This document shows positions 9,406-30,024 of a DNA stretch of 59,262 bases, one piece after another. The stretch lies in IMG/VR virus record IMGVR_UViG_3300027851_000011. One strand, given 5' to 3'. A model generated the notes under the pieces. The model was given only the letters and a program-made list of their open reading frames with translations, did not search any database and was not told where the DNA came from. Numbering within the stretch: position 1 is the stretch's first letter; each line of letters opens with the position of its first letter. This DNA is from a virus. Lineage: Duplodnaviria; Heunggongvirae; Uroviricota; Caudoviricetes. A program made the position numbers and the translations under genes.

Positions 9406-12400
9406 ATGAGCAAGCTGGAACTCCCGATCCGCGCGTTTGTTGAGGACTACGTGCGGCGCGCGTTCCCGAAGGTCGACTTCGGTCGCGGTAGCGCAGCCAA
9501 CGACCTCGTCATCAAGGCGTTCGCTGCCCTGATGCAGCCGATGCGTCACGAGATCGACGTCATCAAGGTGAACCAGAGCCTCTCGAACTGGCGCTACATG
9601 CGCACCGAAGATCTCGACCAGATCGTGGCCAACTGGGGCCGCTACCGCCAGAACGGCGGGCGTTCGCAGGGCACCGTGCGCCTCTACTTCGACAAGGCCC
9701 TGGAGTACCAGTTCTCGTCGCTGGAGTTCTACACCTCCGACGGCCTCTCCTTCTTCCTCGTCGCGCCGATCACAATCACCGCGACCGATCTCTTCCAGCG
9801 CCGCATGAGCACCAGCGGTGAAGAGAGCCGCTACTTCTTCGATGTGAACGTGCGGTCTTCGGGCGTCGGCAGCCGCTTCGCACTTCCCGTCGGCTCGATC
9901 GTCGGCGTCCGCAACACGCCTCCGGGTATCGTCGCCGTCGAGCAGCTGGAAGACTTCGCGGTCACTGCTCCAGAAGAGAGCAACTTCGATCTCGTCAACT
10001 CGCTATTCAAGAACATCGGGCTGCGCAATCTCATCAGCCGCTCCAGCATCCGTGCGCCGCTGCTCGACAACTTCCCCGGCATCCTCGACATGTTCATCGC
10101 TGGCTCGGGCCATGCGAGCATGGTGCGCGATCTCATCGACGTGCAGCTGCCGACCGGCCCGGTGCAGATGCACGCTGGTGGCATGACCGACATCTGGCTG
10201 AACACGGCCACGCTTCAGCGCAAGCAGATCACCCTCAGCTACCTGCCGTCGTCCGGCCGCGTGAAGCTCGTCAGCGCGCTCCAGTCGCAGGAGCAGGAGC
10301 TGATCTTCGACTTCCAGCGCGGCGTCGTCACCATCGACGGCTTCTTCCAGAACCCGGAGGTTGGTGCCTACGAGGTCGACGAAAGCATCTCGCTGACGTT
10401 CGATCTCCAGGACGTCCCGGTCAAGACCTTCATCATCAGCCGCGTCGACGAGTACCGCAACGCGATCGCCGAGAAGGACATCATCGCCGGCAATGACATG
10501 ATGGTGCTGCCCGGAGCGGCCGGCTACGGCAACCTGAGCGCTGACATCGTCGGCCTCAACTTCCGCAACGCGGACATCGTCGTCGGCGACAACATCAGCA
10601 TCGGTGGCAAGCACCGTCGCATCACCCGCATGTCTGGCCGGGTGATCGAGACCTCGCCGGCCCCGGTCAAGGTCCACGACTTCCTCTACATCGGATCGCC
10701 GGCAGCGCCCGGCGACCGCACCTTCGCGCTCTCGGACGTTCATCTGCATGCTCGTGTGAACGACCGGCTGATCGTCACCACGTCGGCCGCTGCGTCGATG
10801 TACTCAGTGCTCGCGCTCAGCACGAATCAGGTGACGATCGGCCGTGTCGACGCCCAGGTCAGCGTGACCGCCAACGACCCGCACGCCACCAACACCAATC
10901 TGCGCGTGCTGACGATCACCGGGCCAGCGGGCTCGCCGCCGAAGCACAGCCTGGATCTCGCCAACGTCGGCTACATCTACTTCGGCACCGACGCAGGCTT
11001 CGACCAGGGCGCCTACTTCAAGATCGTGAACGTGGTTCCCGGCGTCAACAGCACCACGCTGGAAGTCATCGACCCGAGCAATGCGACGAGCGCGCTGCCG
11101 CCAGACGCGAACCTCGTGCTCGGTCTGATCGGTGCGATGCCCACGGACACGCCGATCATCATCGAGCGTGATGACGACGCATACAGTGCACAAGCATCCA
11201 AGTTCCCCGTCGCTACGACGCACACCCACTATGCCAACGAGCTGGATGCCCCGCTCGCCTTCGGCACGGACACGGTTCCGGCGCTCGGCATCGGTCTGGT
11301 CGCGGGCGTCGGCGACGTCGTGATCTTCTTCGACGTCTCGGTGCCCTCGACGGCTCTGGCCGCCAGCGGTGCAGACGGCAGCCGCTTCTCGGTCGTCGTA
11401 TCTCAGATCCTCAGCGCTGATGAAGTTCGCGTCCAGCCGGCGCTCCCCTTCGAGCTGCCCGCCGGGGCACGCTATGCCGTGATGCGCAACAGCTACCCGC
11501 TGGTCACCGCAGTCACGGCCGACAGCGTCGACCCGATCAACAACGACGTCACCATCAACAGCTTCCCAGTCGGACTGGGTGATGGCCTCGGCCTCATCAT
11601 CAAGAAGGGGCTCCAGCAGTACGTCGTGATGTCGAGCACCGCTGGCTCTGTCCGCACCCTGAAGTTCAAGCCGCCGGCCTACGTCCGCACACTGACCTTC
11701 AATGCTGGCGGCTACATCGCGCCCACCGTCGCAGCCAAGGGGCTGCTGGTGAAGGATGCCGTCGGCGGCTACACCGGCATCCTCTATGCCTTCGACAACA
11801 TTGCGCGCACGTGGCAGGTGATCCCGACCACGCCGGCCGACGTCTTCGACACGGCGCTGAACAACGTCACGATCATCGGCACCACGGCAGCGGGAACGCT
11901 CTCGGTCCCCTCGACCGGGCCCGCTCCTGTCGGTTACGAGACGCCCGTCGCCGGAGACCTTGGCAGCTTCGTGCGTCAGGGCAGCTCGACGGGCGTGCTC
12001 CAGGGCTTCAACACCACCCTCTTCGAGTGGTACGTGAAGCCGCTCGGTGACAGCGACACCTTCAGCGACCTGACGCTCACCACCTTCGTGGACACCGGAA
12101 CTGGCGTCGTGACGCCCGGCCACGGCGCTGGCATGCTGGCCTCGGCGCCTGGACCCACCGGCATCGCCGCCGGCCCCGTCACCCTCACGCTCGACAAGCC
12201 GATCGCATTCAGCTCTGGCGACCAGATCGACTTCTACTCGCGCTTCGGCTCCAGCGGCTGCAACTTTGATGAGCAGAACCTCATCGTCGACCCGAACCCG
12301 GCCTACAGCCCCAGCTCGCTGTTCACGTCGGTCGTCGCTGGCACGGATCAGGTCGCCCTGCTGGCCGGCATCGACCTCGGGCTGCTCACCGTCGAGAAGG

Positions 12401-14370
12401 TGAACTCGAACTCGCTGCGCCTCGCTGAAGCTGTGACGCCTGATGTCGTGCGCTTCCCGAACGCTCCTGGCGCAACGCAGTTCAACCTGTCGGCACCCAT
12501 CGCACAGGGCGAGACCGTGATTGGCCAGATCGGCATTGGCCGCTGGGCTGCCACCGGGCGCTGCCTGCTCATCAGCGGGCCGAGCGGCACGCGGCTTCTG
12601 CCCATCGCAGAGCCGCTGTCGCCTGACAGCATCCGGCTCGCTGTCGGCAACCCCGCCGTCATCTACCCCGGCCAGGGCTACACCTGGGAGGTCGTCGACG
12701 CGCTCCACATGCCCTACTGGATGGTGGAGCCGGGCGCCATCAGCCAGTACCGCGTCTACCGCACGCCGACGCTCGGTGATCTGATCCACTCCGGGACTGC
12801 TGGCATCGTCAGCAATCTCCAGCCGACCTACTTCTCTGACACCAACGCTGATCTCCAGGCTGTTCTCGTCGGTCAGGATCTCGCCGCTGGCAACGTGGAG
12901 CTGGCAATCGACAGTGGTGACTACGCCTCGTCGATCCCGTTCGTGATCAAGCGCGTCGTCTCGACGAACACCGTCGAGCTGGAGAACGCGAACTTCACCA
13001 CGGCTGGGAACAACGTCAGCTATCGCATCCTGCACCGGAACGGATCGCGGCGCATGGAGAAGTGGATCGACGGCTTCGTCGCCCCGCTCGCGTCCCGCGA
13101 TCGCATCGCGCTGTTCGCAGACCCTGGTTCGCTGCTGCGCAACAACACCACCGACCAGTGGGTCGCTGTGATCACCCCGTCGGCGGCCTGGGACGGCAGC
13201 GGTGCACCGGGTGCCCCGAACTTCACGATGCCGCGCCTGAAGCTCGCCGACGTCGAGTACTCGCCGGACTCGCTCTACCTGATCAGCCGGCGCCTGGGTG
13301 CGGCTGACAACATCGCCATCGTCGAGACGTCTGCTGCGATCACCACGCTCGGCTTCGTCGGTGGCTCGCCGACCACGCGTGCCTACGCGGAGATCACGTT
13401 CACGGCCAATCCGGTTCCCGGCGACGTGATCACCATCGGCATGTCGGGCGTGACCCACACGTTCCAGTTCCTCACGCTGCTGTCGTCGCTGATCCCTGGC
13501 CGCATCGCTGTGACCATCGGTGCCAACAAGGAGGCAACCTGCGCGAACCTGCTCGCCGCGCTCGTCGCGCAGGGCTACCCGGCTGACATCTTCGGCAAGA
13601 TCGAACTGGTCTTCGACAAGACGGCCGGGCACTACGGCGCGATCCAGGCCACCGATGCCTTCGACGCCAACGGATTCACGCTGCCATACGGCACGCAGCT
13701 GCGCGTCATGCTGCGCAACACCGACCGCGTCGATGCTGCGGCTCTGACCGGCATGGCTCAGAACACCTTCAACTACTACAGCGGTGAGTTCCTCGACCTG
13801 CCGGTCGTGAAGATGATCGCTGTCGAGGTGCTCGATGCTTCGACCCGCGAGCCGGTGAAGGCCGTCGAGTACACCCTGGCCGTCGATGATCCGGGCCTGC
13901 GCTACAGCGCCAAGGAGCGCAACACGCTCGTCATCTCGGACCCGACCGTGGCCTTCAAGCCACTGCGCATCACCTACGTCTCTGATCCGACGATCGGACA
14001 GGTCGATGCCTACGTGAACGAAGACGACACGCGTGTGCTGAACGCCAACCAGCTGGCGAAGCGCATGGAGACGATCGCCGTCTCCATCCAGGTCAGCGTC
14101 CGTTCGTCGCTCGCGTCGAACGAGATCGGCAGCCTGCTCGCCAACTTCGTGAACACCCGGCGCAGCACGCTCCAGCTGAGCAAGGCCGACATCATCAAGG
14201 CGCTCTACGACAACCGTGAGATCTCCTACGTCGAGATCCAGTCCATGCGCCTCGACGCCACCTACTTCGCGCTCAACGGCCTGATCACGAACTACAACGA
14301 CGTTTCAGAGGTGTTCGGGTCCGAGACGGCCTGCTACATTGCTGAGAACATGTTCGTGACGAAGATCTGA
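9406..14370 (+). CDS. Baseplate J/gp6-like wedge protein with a very large beta-rich insertion, 1654 aa
   Basis: N-terminus DFGRGSAANDLVIKAF...LDQIVANWGRYRQNGGRSQGTVRLYF...APEESN is baseplate-J-like. GAGG RBS; follows the gp25-like gene. Confidence 0.75.
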   Translation: MSKLELPIRAFVEDYVRRAFPKVDFGRGSAANDLVIKAFAALMQPMRHEIDVIKVNQSLSNWRYMRTEDLDQIVANWGRYRQNGGRSQGTVRLYFDKALEYQFSSLEFYTSDGLSFFLVAPITITATDLFQRRMSTSGEESRYFFDVNVRSSGVGSRFALPVGSIVGVRNTPPGIVAVEQLEDFAVTAPEESNFDLVNSLFKNIGLRNLISRSSIRAPLLDNFPGILDMFIAGSGHASMVRDLIDVQLPTGPVQMHAGGMTDIWLNTATLQRKQITLSYLPSSGRVKLVSALQSQEQELIFDFQRGVVTIDGFFQNPEVGAYEVDESISLTFDLQDVPVKTFIISRVDEYRNAIAEKDIIAGNDMMVLPGAAGYGNLSADIVGLNFRNADIVVGDNISIGGKHRRITRMSGRVIETSPAPVKVHDFLYIGSPAAPGDRTFALSDVHLHARVNDRLIVTTSAAASMYSVLALSTNQVTIGRVDAQVSVTANDPHATNTNLRVLTITGPAGSPPKHSLDLANVGYIYFGTDAGFDQGAYFKIVNVVPGVNSTTLEVIDPSNATSALPPDANLVLGLIGAMPTDTPIIIERDDDAYSAQASKFPVATTHTHYANELDAPLAFGTDTVPALGIGLVAGVGDVVIFFDVSVPSTALAASGADGSRFSVVVSQILSADEVRVQPALPFELPAGARYAVMRNSYPLVTAVTADSVDPINNDVTINSFPVGLGDGLGLIIKKGLQQYVVMSSTAGSVRTLKFKPPAYVRTLTFNAGGYIAPTVAAKGLLVKDAVGGYTGILYAFDNIARTWQVIPTTPADVFDTALNNVTIIGTTAAGTLSVPSTGPAPVGYETPVAGDLGSFVRQGSSTGVLQGFNTTLFEWYVKPLGDSDTFSDLTLTTFVDTGTGVVTPGHGAGMLASAPGPTGIAAGPVTLTLDKPIAFSSGDQIDFYSRFGSSGCNFDEQNLIVDPNPAYSPSSLFTSVVAGTDQVALLAGIDLGLLTVEKVNSNSLRLAEAVTPDVVRFPNAPGATQFNLSAPIAQGETVIGQIGIGRWAATGRCLLISGPSGTRLLPIAEPLSPDSIRLAVGNPAVIYPGQGYTWEVVDALHMPYWMVEPGAISQYRVYRTPTLGDLIHSGTAGIVSNLQPTYFSDTNADLQAVLVGQDLAAGNVELAIDSGDYASSIPFVIKRVVSTNTVELENANFTTAGNNVSYRILHRNGSRRMEKWIDGFVAPLASRDRIALFADPGSLLRNNTTDQWVAVITPSAAWDGSGAPGAPNFTMPRLKLADVEYSPDSLYLISRRLGAADNIAIVETSAAITTLGFVGGSPTTRAYAEITFTANPVPGDVITIGMSGVTHTFQFLTLLSSLIPGRIAVTIGANKEATCANLLAALVAQGYPADIFGKIELVFDKTAGHYGAIQATDAFDANGFTLPYGTQLRVMLRNTDRVDAAALTGMAQNTFNYYSGEFLDLPVVKMIAVEVLDASTREPVKAVEYTLAVDDPGLRYSAKERNTLVISDPTVAFKPLRITYVSDPTIGQVDAYVNEDDTRVLNANQLAKRMETIAVSIQVSVRSSLASNEIGSLLANFVNTRRSTLQLSKADIIKALYDNREISYVEIQSMRLDATYFALNGLITNYNDVSEVFGSETACYIAENMFVTKI

Positions 14371-17300: not shown

Positions 17301-18164
17301 ATCACCACTGCGACCGTCGAGGACAAGCGCACCGCTGTGGTGCATCCGCCCGTCGAGAGCGGCGACTACTCGACGATCGACCTGGATCCGATCACACCAC
17401 AGGTGAAGCGCGGCACGCACATCGACGTCTTCGATGATGCCACGCTGGTGACCTTCACGTTCACTGTCGTCGGCCTGAATGGCACGACGGTCTACGTCAC
17501 GCCGACGGTGTCGTCCATCATCAACGGTGCAGCGACCGTCCGTTCTGGAACGGAGATCAAGCGCGAGTACTTCGGTCTCGCTACGCCTCCGAGCAGCTCG
17601 CCGGTCGAATCTCCGCTGACCTTCGCGCAGCCGATCCGTTCTCGTGTGCTGCAACTCGCTGACACCTCGCGGTTCCCAGCGTCTGGCGAGTGCACCGTGC
17701 GGCTGCCGAACGGCGGCAGCACCGAGGTGCGCTACAACCGTGTGGCGCGCGGCTTCCTGCTCGACTGCGAGTGGCCGTCGACGTTCCCGGCCCTCACAGG
17801 CCCGCGCCCGGCGCCCGGCATTGAAGGACCCCTCGATCCACAGCTGCCTGAGGGCACCGTGGTTCGTCTCATCTCAGAGCACCGGCAGACACGACTCAAC
17901 CCGGCGTTCATCGCGCTCGTCAATCAGCGCGTCACGCAGGATCTGCGCACGTCCGAGAAGCGCATCCAGGTCAGCGATGCGAACGCCGATGAACTGTATG
18001 CATTCTTCAAGAACTCGTCTGCGGTCATGGAGTCAGCAGCCGTGAGCCGGCCACAGGTACTCCGCGATCTGATGGACGATGTCGTCCCGCCCGGCTCGAC
18101 GCTCGTCACCATGAGCAAGCATCGCATCATCGACGTCTACTCTGGCGGAATCGGAGAGAAGTAA
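14373..18164 (+). CDS. Large baseplate wedge/tail structural protein, 1263 aa
   Basis: 2-bp gap after the J-like gene, beta-rich, with segment DSSEAYRTALHANLSLRFSGP resembling wedge (gp7/P2 I-like) proteins (inference). Confidence 0.6.
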   Translation: MAAPRSPIAETLEQLVWGRLSTFWSRDYNPDDKERLNAVYEGCLEALDAEYTRLFEINNSKSIAAINPLTQRRWLRLDLNRHAELAAFLKFLSTSSAGGAASSDASNVLSCDTTENNHARHWHISFPYVVPQGDPVTRASIELRYRIDLRLVRIYHMRRDPRTGIARGVLLRPGADYQLMPSGTGIRLSATVPGDQYELVVGFDLSDPMYDGLQPIVSYAAGYDVAAQNVIRVNPELTIANLPIHVLVVKNVRDSGAGGLVETNTPSFSSKYVFIPWTGLTTGPMHGAVPGTVALPNTVNIESTDAVFVFGLIRGEFVENHKHVLATTLLNPGAAPRITSTLFRAAGSTSRVTFDTPLRPGLFGSLAYLGQPFEVLVDGELLPRSDYQFDADGNLNLKFPLTWTADQYRSVVVRSTDEYDTLHGGAADQHIHIECILQSAKPPEFYETFDDGGDFDDEAGGTFDDKRTLNIVFLDDVGADLSTLEVWVNGVRKLSDIDYVATFDVDTKRVRISFGFNIKDMTIYAAYRRESRTFVYGRYAKGFISQTLSGLLTDIGALKDAFSSSTGFQIKNMGRLIEAAETAGAGGNPLLTLFYDERQEFSDISVDSNRVAISLDDARLVESIGTKLVAIPFLCDRVLRPALRLEQGVDYDIVDGEIRSSFDLTAKRYESDANPGVWWCPIVILDEQMLKKNFGVLVGDERADSSEAYRTALHANLSLRFSGPVVRDLERAAAVLYGSPVFTQDGRITSIDTRTIGYDITVASGTTTQTVRVGSNAVKPVVGERILRSQSLAAAALYDGKLGGLILHKRATVIAELPYVKAAAGDIVRLTTFDPADPTQTPLPFVTRLLSVRYDADYLPARTTLSFENVPRFDVTVESELRILRDAGPPYAALDGIVVSVEAINETVMKTANSEYVLPPGRMPEQRVGEFVARGQPIHQSFAQLYDDTRRPNWHWLKPSHYAKDWEYVLKGLGTPITTATVEDKRTAVVHPPVESGDYSTIDLDPITPQVKRGTHIDVFDDATLVTFTFTVVGLNGTTVYVTPTVSSIINGAATVRSGTEIKREYFGLATPPSSSPVESPLTFAQPIRSRVLQLADTSRFPASGECTVRLPNGGSTEVRYNRVARGFLLDCEWPSTFPALTGPRPAPGIEGPLDPQLPEGTVVRLISEHRQTRLNPAFIALVNQRVTQDLRTSEKRIQVSDANADELYAFFKNSSAVMESAAVSRPQVLRDLMDDVVPPGSTLVTMSKHRIIDVYSGGIGEK

Positions 18165-18490
18165 TGCGAATCGCGACAGATGTCATTCGCATCTTCCGCA
18201 TCATGAACGTCGGCGTTCAGCCTGCGCCTGATGCCAACGGCGACATCTACGTGGACGTCGGGCCCTTCAGCCTGACTGCTGTCGTCGATGACCCGGAGAA
18301 CGCGACGCCACACACCTTCCTGTGGGAACAGACCCCTGTCGTCGTTCCTGGTTCCAGCTTCGGGTCGCCGACGCAGCAGTCGACCACATTCGGCCCGCTC
18401 GTCTCCGGCACCATCTACCACCTGTCAATCACCGTCACCTCAGCGCGCCTCCAGACCAAGAACCTCAGGTTCCGCGTCCTTGTCCGCTGA
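18164..18490 (+). CDS. Small Ig/PKD-like protein, 108 aa
   Basis: TAATG coupling; pattern LTAVVDDPE...TFLWEQ...STTF...GTIYHLSITVT. Confidence 0.6.
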   Translation: MRIATDVIRIFRIMNVGVQPAPDANGDIYVDVGPFSLTAVVDDPENATPHTFLWEQTPVVVPGSSFGSPTQQSTTFGPLVSGTIYHLSITVTSARLQTKNLRFRVLVR

Positions 18491-18507
18491 CGCGTAGACC
18501 GTACCCT
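18480..18507 (+). promoter_or_regulatory. Putative internal promoter upstream of the fibre/radical SAM block
   Basis: TTGTCC-16 nt-TACCCT, same hexamers as 8949-8976. Confidence 0.5.
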
Positions 18508-18522
18508 TCTGTCGGAGTAACC

Positions 18523-18987
18523 GTGCACGACGTCACCCCTCTCGGTTTCCGTGGCCACGTGCGTCAGATCAGCTCGATTCACGGGCTGATTCGCGACAAG
18601 CACAACCTTGTCGTGGACGCCTGTGTCGAGCTGGTCGCCCAGGCACTGCTGGGCCGAGACCAGATCGACGCCGTGCTCTTCGGCTACAGCGGCGGCGTCA
18701 TCGCCACGCCTGGGCTCCGCACGATCTACAACCCCATCTACCGCGCGCCGGTGGGTGTGAACTCCGCGTCACCGCCCTTCATCAGCAAGGATGAGCTGGG
18801 CTACAAGTCGATCATCACCTGGACCGGCGTCTACGTGAACCCAGGCCCGAGCAACGTGTCGTACGACATGCTCGGCCTGCTCTCGCAGAACGATCGCCTG
18901 TTCGCGGCCACATCCATCGACACCGTCACGGTGGCGCCCAACGAGAGCATCGCCGTTGAGTGGACCATCGTGACCCGAGGACGCTAA
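18523..18987 (+). CDS. Tail fibre attachment/collar-like structural protein, 154 aa
   Basis: Start re-assigned to GTG 18523 with GGAG upstream. The pattern HNLVVDA...LGLLSQNDRLFA...VEWTI is typical of baseplate-to-fibre junction proteins. Confidence 0.6.
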   Translation: MHDVTPLGFRGHVRQISSIHGLIRDKHNLVVDACVELVAQALLGRDQIDAVLFGYSGGVIATPGLRTIYNPIYRAPVGVNSASPPFISKDELGYKSIITWTGVYVNPGPSNVSYDMLGLLSQNDRLFAATSIDTVTVAPNESIAVEWTIVTRGR

Positions 18988-18989
18988 TC

Positions 18990-21899
18990 ATGGCTGACAT
19001 CATCAAGAATGTTCTGAGCTACGGCGAGCAGCGGCGCACGCTGTTCCTGAACGCGCACAACAAGGACGACTACGGTCGTCACCGCGCACACGTCCTCTAC
19101 GGCCTCGATCTGCTGGGGACTGGCCACAAGGTGCAGATCTCGCCCGGAGCGGTCTACACCGCGCAGGGCCAGCGTCTCTTCTTCGAGGTCACTGATCGCG
19201 AGATCGACATCGGCCCCAACGGCATCGACGCGTTCAACACCAGCCGCTTCCCCGACTATCCGATCTGCGTCCTGCTCTACCTGAACTACCAGTTCCAGGT
19301 GCCCCGCGTCGCGTCGCCGATCGACACCGCGACCAGTGGCCCGACCAAGGCCGATCTGCGTGCCCGCATCGTGCCCTACGACAAGGCAACCTGTGCGCCG
19401 GCCTACAACCTGCTGCCGCACGACCCCGTCAACCTCGACGAGCTTCAGCCCAACACCTACCCGCATCTGAGCAATGCGCTGAAGCCCAGCATCGACCATC
19501 TGCCGTCGCAGAACCCTGCGCTGGAGTCGATTCAGTTCGGTGAGATCCCGCTCGGCTACGTGCTGATCGGTGCTGATCCGGTCAGCAATCTGCCGGCAAC
19601 CAGCCTCGACAGCGCAGGCGTCAGCCTCGTCACCTACAAGAACGTCTTCGACGCAATCAGCGATCTCGTCGGCCAGGACGTTCTGCTGCCGGTACAGGCG
19701 ACGCGTGTCGTCGCTGGCCTCGTCCAAGCCTATGGCTCGGCGCTTCAGCAGGGCTACTCGGATCGCCTCGTCGGCTCTGGCGCTACGTCGCCGCAGCTGC
19801 TCAACCCGCAGTTCGGCACGCCCGAGCCCGGCCCATCTGGCACGCGTGAGGACTCGCCGCACACCCTGTACCGTGAGGCATCGTTCCTGAAGGACGGCGA
19901 GCCCGTGCTCGAAGCCATGCGGCGCATGGACGTCGTACTGCGTCAGTGGATGAACCGCACCGGCGCCCAGGATCTGGTCGCGATCACCAAGGACGGTGCT
20001 GGCAACCTCATCCCCGTCGACTCACCGCTCGACGTCATCCTGCGCAAGCTCGATGGCTCGCTCGACGCAGCGGTCCCTGGCCCGGCCGCCGGCAACGCCA
20101 ACGCCGTGCTCTACGACAACGGCATCCCTGCTGACGCTGCCAACCCCGACAATCACGTGCTCAAGAGCGGCATCCTGCCGCATGTCGAGAACACGGTGAT
20201 GGGCAAGCTCGGCACGGCGGAGGGCGACAGCCACGAGAAGGCCATCGCTGCGCTCGACATCGGGCTCTTCACGGTGCTCGACAAGATCCTCGGCGAGGTC
20301 GTCCCGCGTGATCAGCTCCGCGACGTCTCTGGTGCGCTGTTCACGCCGGTCAACATGGACGAGCGCCCCGAAGGCCGTCCAGACAGCGCGCTGCCCGTTG
20401 TCGGTGGCGGCATGTCGCTGCACTACGTCACCACGCAGAAGTACCGCGCGCTCTTCAACGAGATCTACCGCCGGTCGCTCAGCGCACCCGGCTCGAACCT
20501 CATCGCCAACAACGGCTTCTGGGCCGGCGAGCCGCTGACCGGCACCCCGGCTCCGATGCCGCCGCTGTGGACGCTGTCGGCCGGTGCCAACTGGAGCCGC
20601 GCTCTGGTGAACGTCGGAACTGGCGCGATCAACATCTGGACGGCGACGTTCTCACTCGAAGCTGGCGGCTTCCTGCGCCAGTCGATCGTCACTGAAGACG
20701 TGGTCGGCGAGACCATCCGGTCCTCGCGCTACCTCTCGGCGTCCATCAACATCCAGAACGCCGGAGCCACTGACATCGTCGTCGAGGTCATCCTCTACTC
20801 GGACGATGCGCAGACTGTTCCGGTCGGTTCGATGGCCATCACGGTGCCCGCTGGCCAGCCCATGCGCCTCTACACGGCGACTGGTGAGGTCGCGCCGGCC
20901 CTGACCATCCGCAACGTGCGGTTCCAGATCCGCGCGGCCGGGCTGAGCGATCTCTGCACCTTCGTGATCGCTGGCTGCTCGCTGAACACGGGCATGCCGA
21001 ACTCGATGCCCGGCATCGACACCAAGCAGACCGACTTCGAGTCGCGCTACGACAACTACCACAACCAGCGGCAGGGCGACCACTGGATGGGCGGCAAGGC
21101 CCTGCGCAATGTGGCTGACCTGCCGGCGACGACCGACACGGCGATGGACGATGTCGCCACCGACGCGCCGCATGGCGCCGGCACTGGCCTGCGTGCGATG
21201 AACGCGAAGGACATCAACAACACGATGATGCGCCGCGACGGAGCCAAGGAAGCGACCGGCGACTGGGGGATGGGCCAGCACAAGATCGGCAACACGGCGT
21301 TCGCTGGTGGTGTCGCGGCGCCAGACGCAGCCGAGCTGACGGATCTGCTGCTCAGCGGCGCTCGCAAGCGCGACTACATCAACGCTGGCGACATCAACGA
21401 GGCGATGCTGCGCCGCGATGGTGCCAAGCCGACGACCGGGATGATCACGTTCGGCACCGGCAGCGGCGGTCTCGATGCTAACGGCGAGGTCATCAAGAAC
21501 GTCCCGGCTCCGGCCTATCCGTACTCGCCGGAAGCGCTCACTGCTGCGACGCCCTGGAGCTTCGTGAAGTCGAAGCTCCTGGCGCCGATCAACTTCCAGG
21601 CACCGCCGAACGACACGGTCCCGCTGCCCAACCGTGCTGACGGTTCGTCGAACTACCCCGACCATGCGCACCCGAGCACCTACGTCTATCCTGGCGTCGA
21701 GTACAAGGCCGGCGGCAAGATCATCGGGCAGGCGCTCAAGATGATCGACGATGGCGGCAACACGTGGTATGTCCCTGGTTCGAACGCATCGCCGAACTAC
21801 TGCAACTGCACCTGCACCTGCACGTGCACCTGCACCTGCACGTGCACCTGCACCTGCACGTGCAACGGTGACTACGACTGTGGCTCATGCATGAACTGA
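18990..21899 (+). CDS. Tail fibre-like protein with a C-terminal Cys-Thr repeat, 969 aa (candidate radical SAM substrate)
   Basis: Start at ATG 18990 (MADIIKNV). Has a carbohydrate-binding-like domain starting NLIANNGFW and fibre-shaft repeats (MMRRDGAKEATGDWGMG, MLRRDGAKPTTGMITFG). C-terminus is YCN(CT)9CNGDYDCGSCMN. Confidence 0.7.
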   Translation: MADIIKNVLSYGEQRRTLFLNAHNKDDYGRHRAHVLYGLDLLGTGHKVQISPGAVYTAQGQRLFFEVTDREIDIGPNGIDAFNTSRFPDYPICVLLYLNYQFQVPRVASPIDTATSGPTKADLRARIVPYDKATCAPAYNLLPHDPVNLDELQPNTYPHLSNALKPSIDHLPSQNPALESIQFGEIPLGYVLIGADPVSNLPATSLDSAGVSLVTYKNVFDAISDLVGQDVLLPVQATRVVAGLVQAYGSALQQGYSDRLVGSGATSPQLLNPQFGTPEPGPSGTREDSPHTLYREASFLKDGEPVLEAMRRMDVVLRQWMNRTGAQDLVAITKDGAGNLIPVDSPLDVILRKLDGSLDAAVPGPAAGNANAVLYDNGIPADAANPDNHVLKSGILPHVENTVMGKLGTAEGDSHEKAIAALDIGLFTVLDKILGEVVPRDQLRDVSGALFTPVNMDERPEGRPDSALPVVGGGMSLHYVTTQKYRALFNEIYRRSLSAPGSNLIANNGFWAGEPLTGTPAPMPPLWTLSAGANWSRALVNVGTGAINIWTATFSLEAGGFLRQSIVTEDVVGETIRSSRYLSASINIQNAGATDIVVEVILYSDDAQTVPVGSMAITVPAGQPMRLYTATGEVAPALTIRNVRFQIRAAGLSDLCTFVIAGCSLNTGMPNSMPGIDTKQTDFESRYDNYHNQRQGDHWMGGKALRNVADLPATTDTAMDDVATDAPHGAGTGLRAMNAKDINNTMMRRDGAKEATGDWGMGQHKIGNTAFAGGVAAPDAAELTDLLLSGARKRDYINAGDINEAMLRRDGAKPTTGMITFGTGSGGLDANGEVIKNVPAPAYPYSPEALTAATPWSFVKSKLLAPINFQAPPNDTVPLPNRADGSSNYPDHAHPSTYVYPGVEYKAGGKIIGQALKMIDDGGNTWYVPGSNASPNYCNCTCTCTCTCTCTCTCTCTCNGDYDCGSCMN
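21801..21866 (+). repeat. In-frame 6-bp tandem repeat TGCA(C/A)(C/G) x11, with a higher-order 18-bp unit x3, encoding alternating Cys
   Basis: TGCAAC + (TGCACC TGCACC TGCACG)x3 + TGCAAC. Confidence 0.95.
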
Positions 21900-23314
21900 T
21901 GCGATCCCCAGGCGCGGACCTCGTCTTCTCAGGCGAGGCCCCGTGGGGCTACGATCCGGCGACGCACACCCTGCGCTCGCCGAAGCATCGTGCCGCCAGA
22001 CCGAGCCCGCAGCTCCAAGACGCGATCACCCGGTATCTGGCCGGCGTGAAACTGCTTGTCGAGTTGGACATGGCGACCAAACCACCGGCCGCCATCACCA
22101 TCGAGCACGACAAGCGCTGCCAGCTCGGCTGCTCATTCTGCTACGCTGGATCAAACAAGGTCACGACCTCGCCGCGTCTCGACCCCAAGCGGGTCTGGCA
22201 GTTCGTCGAGCGCTACCAGACGCGCGACGTTCATGTGTACGGTGGAGACCCGTTCTTCGACGTCAGCTACATGACCGAGCTGCTCGAAGGGATCGCACAC
22301 CGCGTCGGCGGTATCCGCAAGCTGCACATCTCAACGAATGCGCTTGGACTCCGCCCCGATGTTCTGCTCCAGCTGCGCTCGATCAGCGAGAAGCTCGACC
22401 TCCAGGTGTCGTGCGAGCCTGAGTTCTTCGGTCTTCGGAATACCAAGGGCGGCGTGCACCAGAATGGCCCGCTCGCTGAACGCATCGCTGCGCTGCCCGT
22501 CGACTATGCGCTGAAGTTCTCCACGGTCCTCGCCCCTTCAGCGGGCGTGACGAATCAGACGTTCATCGACGGGCTCATGGCCTACGACACCTTGGCAGCT
22601 GGGCGTCCGTTCAGCATCGTGTGGATGATGGAGACCGAGAACAAGAATGCACAGATGCCGCCGTGGGTCATCCGGTGGATCGCTGAGAACTGGATGATCC
22701 ACGCAGAGAATGCGATCCCGACGAAGTTCCAGAATGCAATGCTCGGCAGCGCATACATGCGCTACGTGAAAGGCTGGTCGAACTCGCAGATCCACGATGC
22801 CCTGATGGGCAACCTCATGGGGTGCGGCTCCGGCACTGGAAACTTTGCATTTGCCAGCGATGGCCATGTCTACACGTGCCACGAGAAGGCAGCTGCCGGT
22901 GTCGAGACGTTCCGCGTCGGTACGAAGAACGCTTGGGAGCGTTGGAAAGCCAGCCGCCAGTTCTTCACGCCCGACTACGTGCGTCCTGAGTGCCGCGCGT
23001 GCCCAGCAAAGTTCGGCTGTCAGCTCTGCTCTGTGAAAGCCTCGAACACCACGTGTTCGTTTGAGCAGGAGCGCTTCGCCCTCGGCGTCCATCTCCTGTA
23101 TCTGCTCGACAACGGCAGCTACATGGCTCTGGCTGACAAGCTGGAGGATCGCTACTACCGGATTCTGGAGCAGCGCGAGGACATCTACCGCATCGTGCGT
23201 TCGCCCTACTGGGATCGACTCTTGTCAAGCACAGAAACTGTTGACGATGTGCAGTGGTGCTATTCGGCGGCGTTCGGTCGCCCCATGAAACCCCTCCTGG
23301 AAGTCACGCTGTGA
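21899..23314 (+). CDS. Radical SAM/SPASM domain protein 1, 471 aa
   Basis: CQLGCSFC (22118-22141), YGGDPF, ISTNAL; SPASM cysteines CGSG...DGHVYTCH...CRACPAKFGCQLC...C. Start at a TGATG overlap with the fibre stop. Confidence 0.92.
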   Translation: MRSPGADLVFSGEAPWGYDPATHTLRSPKHRAARPSPQLQDAITRYLAGVKLLVELDMATKPPAAITIEHDKRCQLGCSFCYAGSNKVTTSPRLDPKRVWQFVERYQTRDVHVYGGDPFFDVSYMTELLEGIAHRVGGIRKLHISTNALGLRPDVLLQLRSISEKLDLQVSCEPEFFGLRNTKGGVHQNGPLAERIAALPVDYALKFSTVLAPSAGVTNQTFIDGLMAYDTLAAGRPFSIVWMMETENKNAQMPPWVIRWIAENWMIHAENAIPTKFQNAMLGSAYMRYVKGWSNSQIHDALMGNLMGCGSGTGNFAFASDGHVYTCHEKAAAGVETFRVGTKNAWERWKASRQFFTPDYVRPECRACPAKFGCQLCSVKASNTTCSFEQERFALGVHLLYLLDNGSYMALADKLEDRYYRILEQREDIYRIVRSPYWDRLLSSTETVDDVQWCYSAAFGRPMKPLLEVTL

Positions 23315-24771
23315 AGCCACTCATCACGGACGAATACCCAGTAGAGTTCGGCCGCTTCCGCGACATCTTCGACCCTGAGGTGTACGACACTGACTTCAAC
23401 CTGTACAAGGATAGCTGCGATCCACAGCTCATGGCCATCATGGGCAACTTCACCGAACAGGACAAGAAGGACTACTACAACTTCTTCCTGCTGCTGCGCG
23501 CCGCGCATGCAGGGATCGCGGCAACCGTTCGGCGCCCGCAGAAGCTCGTGATTCACGGCTTCAAGGAATGCCACCTCAAGTGCAGCTACTGCATCGTGGA
23601 GGCGAACCAGCCGGGCGCGTCGACTGAGCATCTGAACCTCGACGTCATCAAGCAGCTGCGTGACACCTACGCGATCAACTCTGTGCACTTCGTCGGCGGC
23701 GAACCGACGTATGACTGGGATCAGCTGTATCGGTGCCTCGACATCCTGGGGCCGATGCTCAATGTTTCGCTGACGACCAACGGTCTCGGACTCACGCAGC
23801 GACACCTCGACGAGATGGATCGTCGGTGCCAGGACGTCTCATACCACGTGTCCGTCGAGCCCCAGTCGTGGGGACAGCGGATGTTCACAGATGGAGTGAC
23901 GCATCAGAACGTCGCGCTCAAGCGCGTGTTCGAGAAGCTGAACCCCGAACAGGTGTTCCGCTCGAAGACGAGCTGCCTCAACGTAGTTCTGCCGATGGAT
24001 TTCAAGTCGGCATCGGGCATCGAAACGAAAATGGATGTCGATGCCATCGTCGACGAACTCTCGGACGTCGTGAACTACCGTGACTGGATGGGGATCTGGC
24101 ATGTCGAGTTCGCGATGGAAGGCAACAAGACGCGTCCGCTCGACGACTGGATCTATCGACTGCTCGTCGACGAATCTGCGAAGGCCGCATCTGGCACGAT
24201 GACGAAGCAGCGCTTCCTCAATGGCCCCATTGGTGAGATGGCGTACCGGATGATCAACGTCAACAACACGAACAAGTACCCTGGCAAGTTCTTCTCGTGC
24301 GCCGTCGGCGGTTCGTCCATTCACGTGTCGTTCAACGGGAAGCTCTACGGCTGCTCGGTCGAAGCAGGACGCGGTGAAGGTGAGCGCCCCATCGACCCGC
24401 TCACCTACGGCCCGGCTGACAAGTGGGCGAGCCTCTGCGATGTCATGCCTGCGCTCACATACGACGCGTGCCGCGCATGTCCTGCCAAGTTCTTCTGCGG
24501 GAAGACATGCGGCAAGCTCAACGTCGCTGGTTGCGAGTACAACCGAATCCGCGCTGAACTGCTTCCGCGCGTTCTCAAGCGTTTCCACCCGGAGGAATAC
24601 GAGGCTGTTCGTCGTGCGCAGGAGCGCTACATTTACGCCTACACCCAGCATCGCGATCTGATCCGACACGTTCTGGCTGATCCGTGGACGCAGCAGTTCA
24701 TCCACGGCCAGACAAACGATCTGGAAAAGGTTCGCGAAGCGTCTGATGCCCTTGGAGTCTTGCTGTCATGA
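23311..24771 (+). CDS. Radical SAM/SPASM domain protein 2, 486 aa
   Basis: CHLKCSYC (23569-23592), VGGEPT, LTTNGL; SPASM CAVG...NGKLYGC...CRACPAKFFCGKTC...C. GTGA overlap with the previous stop. Confidence 0.92.
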   Translation: MKPLITDEYPVEFGRFRDIFDPEVYDTDFNLYKDSCDPQLMAIMGNFTEQDKKDYYNFFLLLRAAHAGIAATVRRPQKLVIHGFKECHLKCSYCIVEANQPGASTEHLNLDVIKQLRDTYAINSVHFVGGEPTYDWDQLYRCLDILGPMLNVSLTTNGLGLTQRHLDEMDRRCQDVSYHVSVEPQSWGQRMFTDGVTHQNVALKRVFEKLNPEQVFRSKTSCLNVVLPMDFKSASGIETKMDVDAIVDELSDVVNYRDWMGIWHVEFAMEGNKTRPLDDWIYRLLVDESAKAASGTMTKQRFLNGPIGEMAYRMINVNNTNKYPGKFFSCAVGGSSIHVSFNGKLYGCSVEAGRGEGERPIDPLTYGPADKWASLCDVMPALTYDACRACPAKFFCGKTCGKLNVAGCEYNRIRAELLPRVLKRFHPEEYEAVRRAQERYIYAYTQHRDLIRHVLADPWTQQFIHGQTNDLEKVREASDALGVLLS

Positions 24772-25502
24772 ACACCCTCTTCGACTACGCCAAACTCTAT
24801 GCAGAGACGCCACCGCACGACCCGCTGGACGAGATGCCGTATCTGTCTCGGGTTCTTGCCGGCAACCCGATCAGCTTCTTCGAGTGCCTGAAGCTCGGAG
24901 ACAAGTCGCTGATCCTGAAGTGCATGGCGAACATCCGCCTGTACTACGGCATCAAGCACTACAACACGGCGCTGGCCATCATCCGCAAGGGTGACGACTG
25001 CCAGGAGCTGGCCGACTTCAAAGCCGAGTTCGAAGCGGCTCCGCTGCACCCGCAGCGCCTCATCCTGCTCGATTCGTACATGGCCACCGAAGACGAGGTC
25101 AGCGACTACGACGGTGCCGAGGAAGCGTTCGACCTGAGCACTGACCTGCTCGACTCCAAGAACTTCCACCGCGCTGGCAACGACATCATCTTCCTCACCA
25201 CGCCTGTCGCCTCGTTCTCCTACATGGTCGCTGCCTCGACGGCGCTGCCTGTGTTCGAGCAGGCACCTGAACTGACGCACAGCATCAGCGTCTTCAATGC
25301 CTCGACGGCCACGCGCGACAGCTTCCTGGCGCTCATGAAGCTCATGCGCCGCGAGTGGAAGAACGTCGAGAACCGCAATCGCTTCGTCTACATCACGCAG
25401 AAGACGCTCCTGCACCTTCGTCGTGTCCTCAACGACAACAACCCGGCGTACTCGAAGCTGTTCGACAAGCGCATTGCAACCCTCGCGGAACTGGACTCAT
25501 GA
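24768..25502 (+). CDS. Hypothetical protein within the radical SAM cassette, 244 aa
   Basis: ATGA overlaps at both ends; no motif recognised. Confidence 0.75.
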   Translation: MNTLFDYAKLYAETPPHDPLDEMPYLSRVLAGNPISFFECLKLGDKSLILKCMANIRLYYGIKHYNTALAIIRKGDDCQELADFKAEFEAAPLHPQRLILLDSYMATEDEVSDYDGAEEAFDLSTDLLDSKNFHRAGNDIIFLTTPVASFSYMVAASTALPVFEQAPELTHSISVFNASTATRDSFLALMKLMRREWKNVENRNRFVYITQKTLLHLRRVLNDNNPAYSKLFDKRIATLAELDS

Positions 25503-26980
25503 TCAAACCAGAGCACCGACGCCACGGAGTAATGAACAAGCCGGTCCTCGGCGGCCCCGACAAGGGCTTCAGCTACTACGCTGCCTCGCATCAGTACGTG
25601 CTCGGTGATGCCAAGCCGATCGAGTTCTCACGCGCTGAGGAATACCTGCTCTGGCGCTATTTCCTCGGCATGCGCGTCGTCCACATGTTCGAGCGCATCT
25701 GCGCGAAGCCCGTGTCGCTGATGGCAGACCCGCTGCGTGGCTGCCAGCTCCAGTGCAGCTACTGCTATTCCGAGGTGTGGAACGACGACGGCGTTCGTGT
25801 ATCACCTGAACGCTTCGCTGAACTCCAGCGGCTGTTCGGATTCCCGTCGCTGTCGATGTACGGCGGCGATCCGTTCTACGACTGGAAGTACACGAAGTCG
25901 TGCATCGAGGCCATCAACGCAGTGAAGCCTCTCGATGAACTGCTGATCTCCACGAACGGAATCGGTGTCACGACCGACAAGGTTGCGTGGCTGAAGCTGC
26001 ACGTTCCGAAGATCCAGTTCCAGCTGTCGACGGAGCCAGAGAGCTGGGGCGCTCGCAAGAGTGCGAACGGAAAGCACCAGCGCGAGATCCTCGGTGACCG
26101 GCTCCACGACGTCAGCAAGCTGCTGCCGATTCAGATCGCGCTGGCGATCCCGCGCACGGGCCTCTCCAAGTGGGAGACGCTCGACGAGACCATCGACTAC
26201 TTCCAGCGTGTCGTTGGCCCGACCGACAACTGGTCGCTGAACTGGAAGCTGGAAGAGAACGACGAGCCGGAGCCGACGTACTCGAAGGCGTCGCTGCCAC
26301 CGTGGTACGCCGAGTGGCTCCAGGACGAATGGTACGCTGCGATGGAGAAGGACGGCAGCTACACCAAGTCGCGCATGCGGAAGGGGCTCGTCAACATGCG
26401 CATGTCGTCGATCCTGCGCATGATCGAGAAAGATCAGGCCCCAGTCGACTACTACAACTGCGCTGCTGGCTTCGGTGGACTTGGTATCGGCCCGACCGGC
26501 GAGCTGAGCAGCTGCCATCACCGTGCTGCTGTCGGTGACACCAACTACCGCTTCGACACGGTGACGGCACGTGGTCTGTGGGAGAAGATGGCGCGCGAAA
26601 CGCAGCACATGAACAACAGCGTGTGCGCCACGTGCTGCTCGAAATACACGTGCGGGGGCATCTGCTACACCTCGTTGAACAACAGCACGTGCGAAGCCTT
26701 CCGCGCCAACCTGGAACTCGCGCTGTTCGTTCTCGCTAACCATCTGCCTGACAAGGCTCAGCGCGTTTCTGACGTGACGCGCGCTGCTGCTGAGAAGAGC
26801 AAGAAGCTCGTCGCGCAGATGCGTCAGCTGCTGGAGTCCGAGCACTGGGACAACCTCATCCGTGCCAAGCTGAGCGCTGACGAGATGGGCGACCTGATCG
26901 CGCAGTTCCGTGGCTTCATGCCGAAGCTCGATGTACCGATCTGGGAGCTGCCAGCACCGGGCAGTCCCCAGAGTTTGTAG
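25499..26980 (+). CDS. Radical SAM/SPASM domain protein 3, 493 aa
   Basis: CQLQCSYC (25742-25765), YGGDPF, ISTNGI; SPASM CAAG...TGELSSCH...CATCCSKYTCGGIC...C. ATGA overlap at 25499-25502. Confidence 0.92.
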   Translation: MIKPEHRRHGVMNKPVLGGPDKGFSYYAASHQYVLGDAKPIEFSRAEEYLLWRYFLGMRVVHMFERICAKPVSLMADPLRGCQLQCSYCYSEVWNDDGVRVSPERFAELQRLFGFPSLSMYGGDPFYDWKYTKSCIEAINAVKPLDELLISTNGIGVTTDKVAWLKLHVPKIQFQLSTEPESWGARKSANGKHQREILGDRLHDVSKLLPIQIALAIPRTGLSKWETLDETIDYFQRVVGPTDNWSLNWKLEENDEPEPTYSKASLPPWYAEWLQDEWYAAMEKDGSYTKSRMRKGLVNMRMSSILRMIEKDQAPVDYYNCAAGFGGLGIGPTGELSSCHHRAAVGDTNYRFDTVTARGLWEKMARETQHMNNSVCATCCSKYTCGGICYTSLNNSTCEAFRANLELALFVLANHLPDKAQRVSDVTRAAAEKSKKLVAQMRQLLESEHWDNLIRAKLSADEMGDLIAQFRGFMPKLDVPIWELPAPGSPQSL

Positions 26981-26983
26981 CCG

Positions 26984-27011
26984 TTGCAGGGAACCTCAAT
27001 CAGCCTAGACT
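26984..27011 (+). promoter_or_regulatory. Putative promoter marking the end of the radical SAM cassette and the start of the next unit
   Basis: TTGCAG-16 nt-TAGACT in the 52-bp gap between genes. Confidence 0.5.
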
Positions 27012-27032
27012 GAATCCCCACATGAGGTTCCC

Positions 27033-28352
27033 ATGCTGACCTGCTTCCCCGACGTCGCCCTGAAGACTGCTGCCAGCGTGCGCCCGACCAACGGTGCCCG
27101 GATCGCAGTCCCGCATCCGGCGCTCGCCAATCAGGCTCCAACGCACCCGTCGCAGATCCCTGGCACCGCTGCCCATGCGACCTCGACCGGCGGAGCGGGC
27201 CCTGCGGCTCCGACCGCCGGCCTCGGTGCAGCTCGCGCGCCGGGTCAGACCTTCGGTGGCCGCATGGGCGCCTGGGGCAACCGCCTCGGCAGCATCCGTG
27301 GCATGGCCGGGCTCGGTGCAGCGGTCGGCGCAGCCAAGGGCCTGATCGCCCCTGGCGTCGAGTACGACGAGCAGGGCCGCCCGCACCGCAAGAGCCGCAT
27401 CGGCGCAGCCCTCAGCGGCGCCGGCACTGGCGCGCTGGTCGGTGGTGGCGTCGGCGTGCTCGGCAAGGCAACCGGCGCCGGCAAGGCGCTCGGCAACTGG
27501 GGCGCCAAGGTCGACGCAGGCACCGCAAACGCTCCCGACTGGATGCACAGCGTCCACGAGGGTGCTGGCGGCGGCCAGAGCCAGTTCCGCGCTGATGATC
27601 TGGCGACCCGCCCGGCCAAGGCCGCGATGGCACCGAATCAGGTCAACATCCCGGCCTCGACCCAGAACGTCTACCACGTCACCCAGAAGAATGGCGTGGG
27701 CTTCAAGTTCACCGTGCACGGCCACGATCCGCGCACTGGTGACATTCACGGGCTCTACCATGCGCCCGATGGTTCGAAGCAGCAGACCAGCTTCAACGCG
27801 GCGCACGTCGCGTCGATGAAGCCCCTCAACATCTCCATGCCGCAGGACACCAGCCCCATGCAGACCGCCACGATCTCTCGTCCGCAGCCCAAGGCCGCCG
27901 CGCTGCGCCTCGTCCGCGATGACATCTACCTCGTCGCCGCCACCAACGGCGAGGGCTTCATCGGCACCTACAAGGGCGCGAGCGCTGACGATCGCGCTGT
28001 GTTCCTGCTCCACGCACCCGGTGTGCAGTCCGTCGAAGCTGCCTTCGACATGCGCAAGCTGGCCCACATCTCGCCGGTGATCAACACCAAGACCGGCAGC
28101 GTGGCCCGCAGCCGCGACGAGCTGCCCTTCACCCATGAGGGCCAGAAGCTCGCCGAAGCCTACGCCTTCAAGATCGCGAAGCGCACCGCACCGGCCTCGT
28201 TCGCCGAGCACCAGTTCAAGAAGAAGGACACCGGCATGGCTGCGCCGGAGCCCGCCGCCTCGGCCAGCTCGCCGGCTGACACTGCCGTCGTGGAGCCCAA
28301 GCCGAGCGGCACCCCGCTGCCCGAGCTGCGCGCCAAGTCGAAGAAGAAGTGA
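27033..28352 (+). CDS. Hypothetical Gly/Ala-rich protein with a glycine-zipper segment, 439 aa (possible internal virion protein)
   Basis: GAGG RBS; GLGAAVGAAKG...GAALSGAGTGALVGGGVG; strong codon bias. Confidence 0.6.
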   Translation: MLTCFPDVALKTAASVRPTNGARIAVPHPALANQAPTHPSQIPGTAAHATSTGGAGPAAPTAGLGAARAPGQTFGGRMGAWGNRLGSIRGMAGLGAAVGAAKGLIAPGVEYDEQGRPHRKSRIGAALSGAGTGALVGGGVGVLGKATGAGKALGNWGAKVDAGTANAPDWMHSVHEGAGGGQSQFRADDLATRPAKAAMAPNQVNIPASTQNVYHVTQKNGVGFKFTVHGHDPRTGDIHGLYHAPDGSKQQTSFNAAHVASMKPLNISMPQDTSPMQTATISRPQPKAAALRLVRDDIYLVAATNGEGFIGTYKGASADDRAVFLLHAPGVQSVEAAFDMRKLAHISPVINTKTGSVARSRDELPFTHEGQKLAEAYAFKIAKRTAPASFAEHQFKKKDTGMAAPEPAASASSPADTAVVEPKPSGTPLPELRAKSKKK

Positions 28353-29589: not shown

Positions 29590-30024
29590 ATGCCCGATCC
29601 CTACATCTACATCGTCCGCTCGTTCGAAGTGCACGACGCCGACACGCTCAAGGCCGAGCTGGACCTCGGCTTCGATCTCCGATTCAACACCAATGTGCGC
29701 ATCAACGGCATCGACGCGCCTGAGCAGAGCACAGACGCCGGCAAGCAGGTCACGCTGATCGTGGCCACGGCCCTCAAGAAGATCGTCTCGCAGAAGCTCG
29801 CGCTCCTGGTCGTCAGCCACGACTGGGACAAGTACGGTGGTCGCATCGTCGGCGACCTCGTCTTCGGCGCAGAACGTACGTCGCTTGCGAGCCGCCTGCT
29901 GGCCCTGAAGCTGGCACTGCCGTTCACTGGCAAGGTGAAGAAGTCGCCGTGGTCAGCTTCAGCCCTGAAGTTCATCGCGACTGCTGACGTCAACCGCTAT
30001 GCTTCGGAGATCGTCGCCGGATGA
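29590..30024 (+). CDS. Thermonuclease (SNase-like), 144 aa
   Basis: DADT...DLGF...VRINGIDAPE...DKYGGRIVG motifs; ATG 29590 after GAGG. Confidence 0.85.
   Translation: MPDPYIYIVRSFEVHDADTLKAELDLGFDLRFNTNVRINGIDAPEQSTDAGKQVTLIVATALKKIVSQKLALLVVSHDWDKYGGRIVGDLVFGAERTSLASRLLALKLALPFTGKVKKSPWSASALKFIATADVNRYASEIVAG

Follow-up and report, generated by a model that had tools for sequence, protein, structure and literature searches.

Why should a tailed phage carry three radical S-adenosylmethionine (SAM) enzymes of the SPASM type directly behind a fibre-like gene that ends in alternating cysteine and threonine codons? The question is raised by a five-gene cassette at positions 18990 to 26980 of IMGVR_UViG_3300027851_000011, a Caudoviricetes record of 59,262 nucleotides (the window, by which we mean the whole stretch analysed). 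The answer we favour, and hold to be moderately probable, is that the cassette is a swappable fibre-tip module, in which a Cys-Thr tract is accompanied by three enzymes predicted to cross-link it by Cys-to-carbon thioethers. The pairing of such tracts with radical SAM genes recurs in many unrelated phages, which makes it likely that the enzymes cross-link the tip of a fibre with a presumed role in host binding. That they act on the tract in some way is very probable, and, given that they do, a thioether is the likely product.

The Cys-Thr tract and the layout of the cassette

The first gene of the cassette (18990..21899; all features given here lie on the plus strand) encodes a protein of 969 aa ending CN(CT)9CNGDYDCGSCMN, with 13 Cys in its last 32 residues and 4 in the other 937 (17 in total), as an earlier note made from the letters alone had described. 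The tract itself (21801..21899), the predicted substrate, holds 11 alternating Cys, against a maximum of 4 in 10,000 shuffles of the protein. Its DNA is a perfect 18-nt unit in 3.2 copies, as might be seen if the tract had nothing to do with the enzymes and came from misassembly or repeat slippage. The Thr codons, however, alternate between ACC and ACG, and P0001, a homologue discussed below, carries a Cys-Thr tract at the same position that is identical in all six members of its cluster, drawn from two sources and one with different flanks. This identity argues against an artefact; save perhaps for the exact copy number of the window tract, the artefact explanation is largely refuted, and we give it next to no probability.

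Behind the fibre-type gene lie radical SAM/SPASM enzyme 1 (471 aa, 21899..23314), enzyme 2 (486 aa, 23311..24771), an accessory protein of 244 aa (24768..25502) and enzyme 3 (493 aa, 25499..26980). Stop and start codons overlap at each junction, as TGATG at 21899 (fibre stop and ATG of enzyme 1), GTGA at 23311, ATGA at 24768 and ATGA at 25499, again as first noted, and these overlaps suggest that the five genes are translationally coupled. Alternative in-frame starts exist for enzyme 1 (21887) and enzyme 3 (25532); the 25499 start of enzyme 3 gives MIK, with which two homologues also open. The fibre ATG stands 2 nt past the stop of the upstream gene, so that the unit continues the baseplate operon. 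The promoter-like motifs that the earlier note had placed at 18480 and 26984, bracketing the unit, did not hold up: a scan of 18000-27400 for sigma-70-type promoters found none where 1.3 were expected, and the two stretches have no 7-mer in common. Flanks and fibre have a G+C content of about 65% and the four downstream genes one of 60.4%, which may be a mild sign of separate origin.

Cys tracts and radical SAM genes occur together across viral contigs

Four DNA-motif scans of viral contigs returned at least 118, 55, 119 and 120 stretches, with flanks for 80, 55, 80 and 80. The 294 loci with flanks, which are partly redundant, were scored by one rule (a tract no more than 20 residues from the stop and a same-strand radical SAM gene downstream), four loci without downstream room being dropped. 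Of the open reading frames (ORFs) that end in a Cys tract, 56 are 100 aa or longer, and 55 of these have a downstream radical SAM gene, as does one of the 224 other loci, where the tract is cut by the contig edge. The 45 Asn-type proteins comprise 38 sequences, which fall into 11 groups at 50% identity. In addition, the same Cys-Thr end with a four-enzyme cassette is found on two different fibres (L073/L144 and L170), the second of which, L170, is clearly of the tail-fibre kind (PHROG E 1e-54). The Cys-Thr DNA pattern gave no match in GTDB genomes. As judged from these sequences, the arrangement is not peculiar to the window phage, being one form that a widespread pairing takes.

Metals can be bound by alternating Cys, and the tract might be an unmodified metal, Fe-S or disulfide knot; the enzymes would then have some other target, such as a host surface, a metabolite or a different virion protein. 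Such a knot would leave unexplained why 55 of 56 tract ORFs have an enzyme while 223 of 224 other loci do not, and we regard it as quite improbable.

Two features of the Cys-Thr cassettes elsewhere may be recorded here. A B12-dependent-type radical SAM gene comes after the SPASM gene in L015:2898-4247 and L076:3272-4624, a hint of further methylation, and the first enzyme of the cassettes in L073:3383-4954 and L170:4572-6029, which sits on a long branch and is extended in an unusual way at its C-terminus, may be a divergent or non-catalytic partner.

The enzymes resemble CteB in profile and fold

The assignment of all three enzymes to the radical SAM/SPASM type in the earlier note is upheld. 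Each carries a CX3CX2C motif (residues 74-81, 87-94 and 82-89 in enzymes 1, 2 and 3) and passes the cut-off of 29.5 bits for Pfam PF04055 Radical_SAM, with 33.6, 41.1 and 35.3 bits; the scores for TIGR04085 SPASM (23.4, 19.3 and 26.0 bits) are near misses, all below the cut-off of 27. The seven SPASM Cys are present in all three (309, 327, 365, 368, 374, 377 and 386 in enzyme 1; 330, 348, 387, 390, 396, 400 and 408 in enzyme 2; 321, 339, 376, 379, 385, 389 and 398 in enzyme 3) and conserved in homologues, with the last spacing shorter than in the archaeal enzyme CrpC. The three are about 23% identical to each other and match phrog_1802 (E 6e-16 to 3e-11), and five homologues of enzyme 3 were found at 25-48% identity. 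In a quick tree the window enzymes and six homologues group together (SH-aLRT 100), and those of the other Cys-Thr cassettes and of the Asn and His cassettes fall outside this group.

The best Protein Data Bank (PDB) match by profile is CteB, at E 2.7e-21 with the next at 2.5e-10 (the profile included two L073 enzymes), and CteB is also the best fold match of the enzyme 1 model (Z 18.1, rmsd 4.3, 330 residues aligned). According to the available part of a published account, CteB (PDB 5WGG/5WHY) joins Cys to a Thr gamma-carbon by a thioether in the SCIFF ranthipeptide CteA, and its auxiliary cluster has an open iron (PMC8326336). The enzyme model aligns to CteB from residue 7 and to anSME from residue 62; residues 17-59 are modelled as two short strands and one long helix (64-76 in pLDDT, the predicted local distance difference test), shorter than a full recognition element (RRE) of RiPPs (peptides that are made by the ribosome and modified post-translationally). 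By this likeness the window enzymes appear to be of the CteB kind in working, but outside any named maturase family. As for the Cxxx-repeat system of TIGR04114/TIGR04115, the window tract has period 2, neither fibre nor tip gave a TIGR04114 match, and TIGR04115 is not among the matches listed.

The enzymes might also modify the tract without forming thioethers, by epimerisation as in PoyD, by converting Cys to an aldehyde as in anSME, or by another radical rearrangement, perhaps a different one for each paralogue. The two-residue period recalls the every-other-residue epimerisation by PoyD, as set out in the portion available of PMC8326336; non-thioether SPASM enzymes stand just below CteB by fold, the low identity between the three paralogues (23%) suggests more than one reaction, and a B12-type gene follows in L015 and L076. 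Against this, Cys is constant across the Thr, Asn and His tract types, the seven-Cys SPASM leaves one iron open, a feature of CteB and CrpC too, and CteB comes first in both the sequence-profile and the fold ranking. We therefore consider a non-thioether product unlikely.

The 244-aa protein belongs to no known family: library scans gave no Pfam, NCBIfam or PHROG match, Atlas features and structure gave no usable lead, and a homologue search found three relatives among 1.84 billion representatives (74, 29 and 27% identity). P0016 and P0029, relatives of the 244-aa protein and enzyme 3, suggest that these genes are linked elsewhere too. Close relatives of the window enzymes or fibre with gene context were not found among viral contigs; in GenBank phages neither enzyme 1 nor the fibre had a match, and enzyme 3 had a single one at 20%. 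A scan of genome contigs returned seven loci with 27-30% identity over the SAM motif only; these were set aside, the two that were read, L420 and L422, looking activase-type and having no Cys tract.

Fibre ends are exchanged within one family

Eleven homologues share the first ~710 residues of the 969-aa protein at 45-53% identity. Their ends, classed by eye, comprise one Cys-Thr end (P0001), three CHSNCH-type repeats, five Gly-rich ends and two others. PHROG tail-fibre families are matched in the variable parts of five of the eight homologues scanned, weakly in P0001, and Gly_rich_2 appears in 2 of 12 rows of the fibre-family scan. P0008, with a Cys-His end, shares 91% of residues 1-724 with P0022, whose end is of the non-Cys kind, and the two diverge beyond, so that near-identical phages exchange ends. 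The gene thus shows what is expected of a tail fibre, namely a place after baseplate genes, a conserved N-terminus and an exchangeable C-terminus, and these sequence features support the assignment of the 969-aa protein as fibre-type.

The fibre model has a mean pLDDT of 43.5 and is confident mainly at residues ~500-668, with no usable model for the tract region. The confident part (20487..20993) is predicted to be a beta-sandwich resembling carbohydrate-binding modules (CBMs), with Foldseek matches to CBM4/11/22/61 and tailspike domains at E ~1e-5; sugar binding is thereby predicted only. Cry-toxin matches in the same search were rejected as a common beta-sandwich (TM by query 0.11) that indicates no kinship.

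Directly 5' of the tract lies a Cys-free segment of 48 residues (21657..21800), a candidate enzyme-recognition element or structural pedestal. Run against 5316 proteins, a profile of this segment from five family members matched a fibre, otherwise unrelated, from a 363-kb phage (E 1.4e-7); no Gly-rich-ended or other non-Cys-ended relative was matched. The L170 fibre was not matched either, so the segment is not universal.

One of four syntenic metagenome loci (L124) extends beyond the fibre end. Here a fibre with a non-Cys end is followed by a 128-aa ORF and then by a gene with weak homology to gene 27033 of the window (21 of 32 residues identical, E 0.001), and no radical SAM gene stands behind the fibre in this single case, whose contig ends 1.3 kb past it. 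The loss of both parts together is a further observation that an unmodified knot would leave unexplained.

Cultured phages carry the same pairing

In GenBank searches an Asn-type enzyme matched 18 records and an L073 enzyme matched two records of one phage, and the DNA around the match was examined for four phages, JWF, RSP15, Atu_ph07 and RP12. The Achromobacter phage JWF has, beside radical SAM genes, a fibre with NCNCDCNCNC just before a Hint domain (L121:4799-6250), and Hint self-cleavage would be expected to expose the tract as a new C-terminus. The side fibre of RSP15 ends CQCGN, likewise beside radical SAM genes. Atu_ph07 gp170 (L119:10020-10910, 31.89 kDa) ends CHSSCHASCHNSRSRR (CHSSCHASCH) and lies among three radical SAM genes. 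The Ralstonia phage RP12 (NC_041911.1), with its enzymes and no annotated Cys tail, had seemed a counter-example and was dismissed as such, since an unannotated 65-aa ORF (L122:3858-4055) ends CNCNCACTRGSL (CNCNCAC, a Cys-Asn tract); it overlaps the start of the next gene, upstream of the radical SAM genes, and L309 has a comparable short ORF with a like set of enzymes.

The part available of the Atu_ph07 virion proteome (PMC6102473, Table S5) reports gp170 with eight peptides that cover 35% of it; the protein is at its most abundant in the top gel band, although those of ~30 kDa mostly peak in bands 7-8; its neighbours gp165, gp168, gp169 and gp171, which include the enzymes, are absent from the virion list there. 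As far as that source goes, the high band fits an oligomer resistant to sodium dodecyl sulfate, disulfides or cross-links alike. The disulfide explanation would also suit an unmodified knot, and the described buffer names no reductant (PMC6102473, in the same portion). We regard gp170 as an analogue of the window fibre, not as a homologue by alignment, and virion presence is known for gp170 only.

The fibre end might be a RiPP precursor, its modified tract being cut off as a free peptide, and the earlier note had allowed for such a release. Stand-alone small forms of 65-135 aa (RP12, L309 and L034) are compatible with this, and the pre-tract segment behaves like a leader. However, no protease or transporter was found by Pfam or PHROGs in the ORFs scanned, most carriers are fibre-type, the Hint domain of JWF follows the tract so that the inferred cleavage leaves the tract on the fibre, and gp170 is present in virions, although coverage of its tail is not stated in the available part of PMC6102473. 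By a strict definition the window unit is not a RiPP system, with the tract fused to a 969-aa protein, no separate precursor and no protease or exporter match; the coding strand near the unit holds no Cys-repeat precursor, as the earlier note had maintained. There is, in our judgement, little likelihood of a released peptide.

Proposed mechanism

By analogy with CteB, QhpD and CrpC, the SAM cluster of each enzyme would make a 5'-deoxyadenosyl radical, which would take hydrogen from a tract residue, most likely from a side-chain carbon of Thr, Asn or Asp. A tract Cys would bind the auxiliary cluster, which three Cys hold, at its open iron and form the C-S bond, and repeated rounds would build a thioether ladder before the fibre is assembled into the virion. 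More loosely, the 48 pre-tract residues and the N-terminal ~55 residues of the enzymes might form a recognition pair, the three paralogues might divide the tract sites, the 244-aa protein might be a chaperone or scaffold, and the product might be a small rigid tip, proof against reduction and proteases, that replaces a Gly-rich adhesin end. We do not argue the mechanism from the spacing of Cys and acceptor; the acceptor in CteA is given as Thr34, yet called two positions from Thr37, in the part available of PMC8326336.

What is read directly from the sequences is the tract with its overlapping genes, the two enzyme motifs (CX3CX2C and seven-Cys SPASM), the swapping of fibre ends and the tract-enzyme pairing. 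On this genomic evidence the fibre-type protein, the tract as natural substrate candidate and enzymes of the CteB/PapB/QhpD kind stand as the earlier note had them, its bracketing promoters being lost and the released peptide that it allowed for gaining no support, and the two findings that it had named as fatal to its reading, enzymes without a Cys-repeat neighbour and an assembly artefact, did not turn up within the data covered.

A number of points weigh against thioether cross-linking of the tract. For every member the modification is a prediction from genes. Within the fibre family the link between tract and enzymes consists of the window and one negative relative, whose contig stops 1.3 kb past the fibre, the four Cys-ended homologues have no readable gene neighbourhood, and the 969-aa protein itself has no direct Pfam or PHROG match. 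In the contig survey the 294 loci include some contigs seen in two scans, so that the counts are not independent events, and of the 16 enzymes used to seed the enzyme profile, five came from loci in the scans. The sole exception among the 56 longer ORFs is a 107-aa ORF with a C-terminal (Cys-Lys)n and no enzyme, and ORFs of 60-99 aa with a tract have a radical SAM gene in 6 of 10 cases; the enzyme-less (Cys-Lys)n ORF and the four short ones look like chance frames. As for the chemistry, identity to CteB is 12-16%, and the fold matches TigE, ChlB and anSME, which make no thioether, follow it closely at Z 15-16. The maturase cut-offs are far from reached (TIGR03974 for CteB/ScfB, at most 34 of 425 bits; NF047865 for PapB, at most 32.5 of 340; TIGR03906 for QhpD, at most 28 of 453), the best maturase family score of any enzyme being 39 bits against 519. 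Finally, the separate clade of the window enzymes suggests that one chemistry common to all cassettes is not assured.

A broader picture can be drawn only tentatively, and we think it somewhat less probable than its negation: that in many tailed phages one class of host-binding tip is no folded adhesin domain but a short Cys-alternating tract stitched by phage radical SAM enzymes into a thioether ladder, possibly across three fibre chains, and that tip and enzymes move as one cassette to replace Gly-rich adhesin ends.

Relation to known systems and implications

The window enzymes are like CteB in that it is their best profile and fold match and combines radical SAM with a SPASM domain with open auxiliary iron; unlike CteA, the candidate substrate is the end of a 969-aa virion-type protein, with a period-2 tract and three enzymes. 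A closer parallel in substrate is CrpC of Methanococcus voltae (TIGR04463), which, in the portion available of PMC13692751, cross-links the 29-kDa protein CrpA by ranthionine links and has a seven-Cys SPASM domain, a pattern taken there to mean that three Cys hold the cluster and one iron stays open to the Cys of the substrate. It shares with the window this SPASM pattern, a C-terminal Cys-repeat region of a whole protein and a neighbouring helper gene, but is archaeal and acts on 17-residue repeats with C-X-X-Q/D, and the matches listed for the window enzymes do not include TIGR04463. The main text of PMC13692751, so far as available, mentions no phage or tail. QhpD, which acts on QhpC of quinohaemoprotein amine dehydrogenase, is likewise a SPASM enzyme installing Cys-to-carbon thioethers within a protein (PMC13692751, same portion); unlike in the window, its acceptors are Asp/Glu in an enzyme subunit.

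Among phages, the available part of PMC7029224 describes radical SAM cassettes in the tail-fibre region of pelagimyophage host-recognition clusters, differing between close phages; unlike here, no substrate or Cys tract is proposed, the word 'cysteine' being absent from the main text as available. Tail-collar proteins are predicted substrates of 2-oxoglutarate dioxygenases encoded alongside them (PMC2938197, in the part available), which resembles the window in that a co-encoded enzyme is predicted to modify a fibre-domain protein, but these are bacterial operons for hydroxylation and sulfation, with no radical SAM enzyme or Cys tract described there. In the open-access literature (subscription papers lying outside the scope) no link between phage radical SAM enzymes and a Cys-ended fibre was found, and the portions available of PMC7159879, PMC8066314 and bioRxiv 10.64898/2026.08.12.739948 do not describe the system. 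The pairing is real, recurrent and unexplained in the literature searched, and would put a familiar type of chemistry to a new purpose. The window contributes the swapping of ends within a single fibre family and an enzyme clade of its own.

If the proposal is true, a virus uses the chemistry of peptide natural products (RiPPs) to mature a structural virion protein. Few whole proteins serve such enzymes as substrates, the examples in the sources as available being QhpC and CrpA. It would also explain the radical SAM genes in the tail regions of many phages, including the four cultured ones, which make the idea directly testable by virion mass spectrometry. Such fibres would need their enzymes when expressed or moved, and the enzymes themselves may be able to cross-link a C-terminal tag on a large protein.

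Genomic setting

The window represents a tailed-phage structural region. A baseplate wedge subunit-like gene (9406..14370), the first 400 aa of which match phrog_6 baseplate wedge at E 3e-13, precedes the cassette and is kept upstream of the fibre in L123, and a portal-like gene lies at 32697. Directly upstream of the fibre is a conserved gene of ~155 aa (18523..18987, start uncertain), with 55-58% identity in L123-L126 and a weak phrog_5417 match. Directly 3' of the last stop, before gene 27033, folding reveals a stem-loop without a U tract (26983..27040; -22.6 kcal/mol, z -3.48, with none of 200 shuffles folding as well), a possible end-of-unit element. Two genes before the portal-like gene, a 584-aa protein (30021-31775) has an N-terminal NUDIX domain and a long part without assignment. 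Finally, a long run of genes at 36600-57116 matches F5/8, laminin G, BNR, Ig, lectin and head-decoration domains, and is probably a second large appendage or host-recognition cluster.

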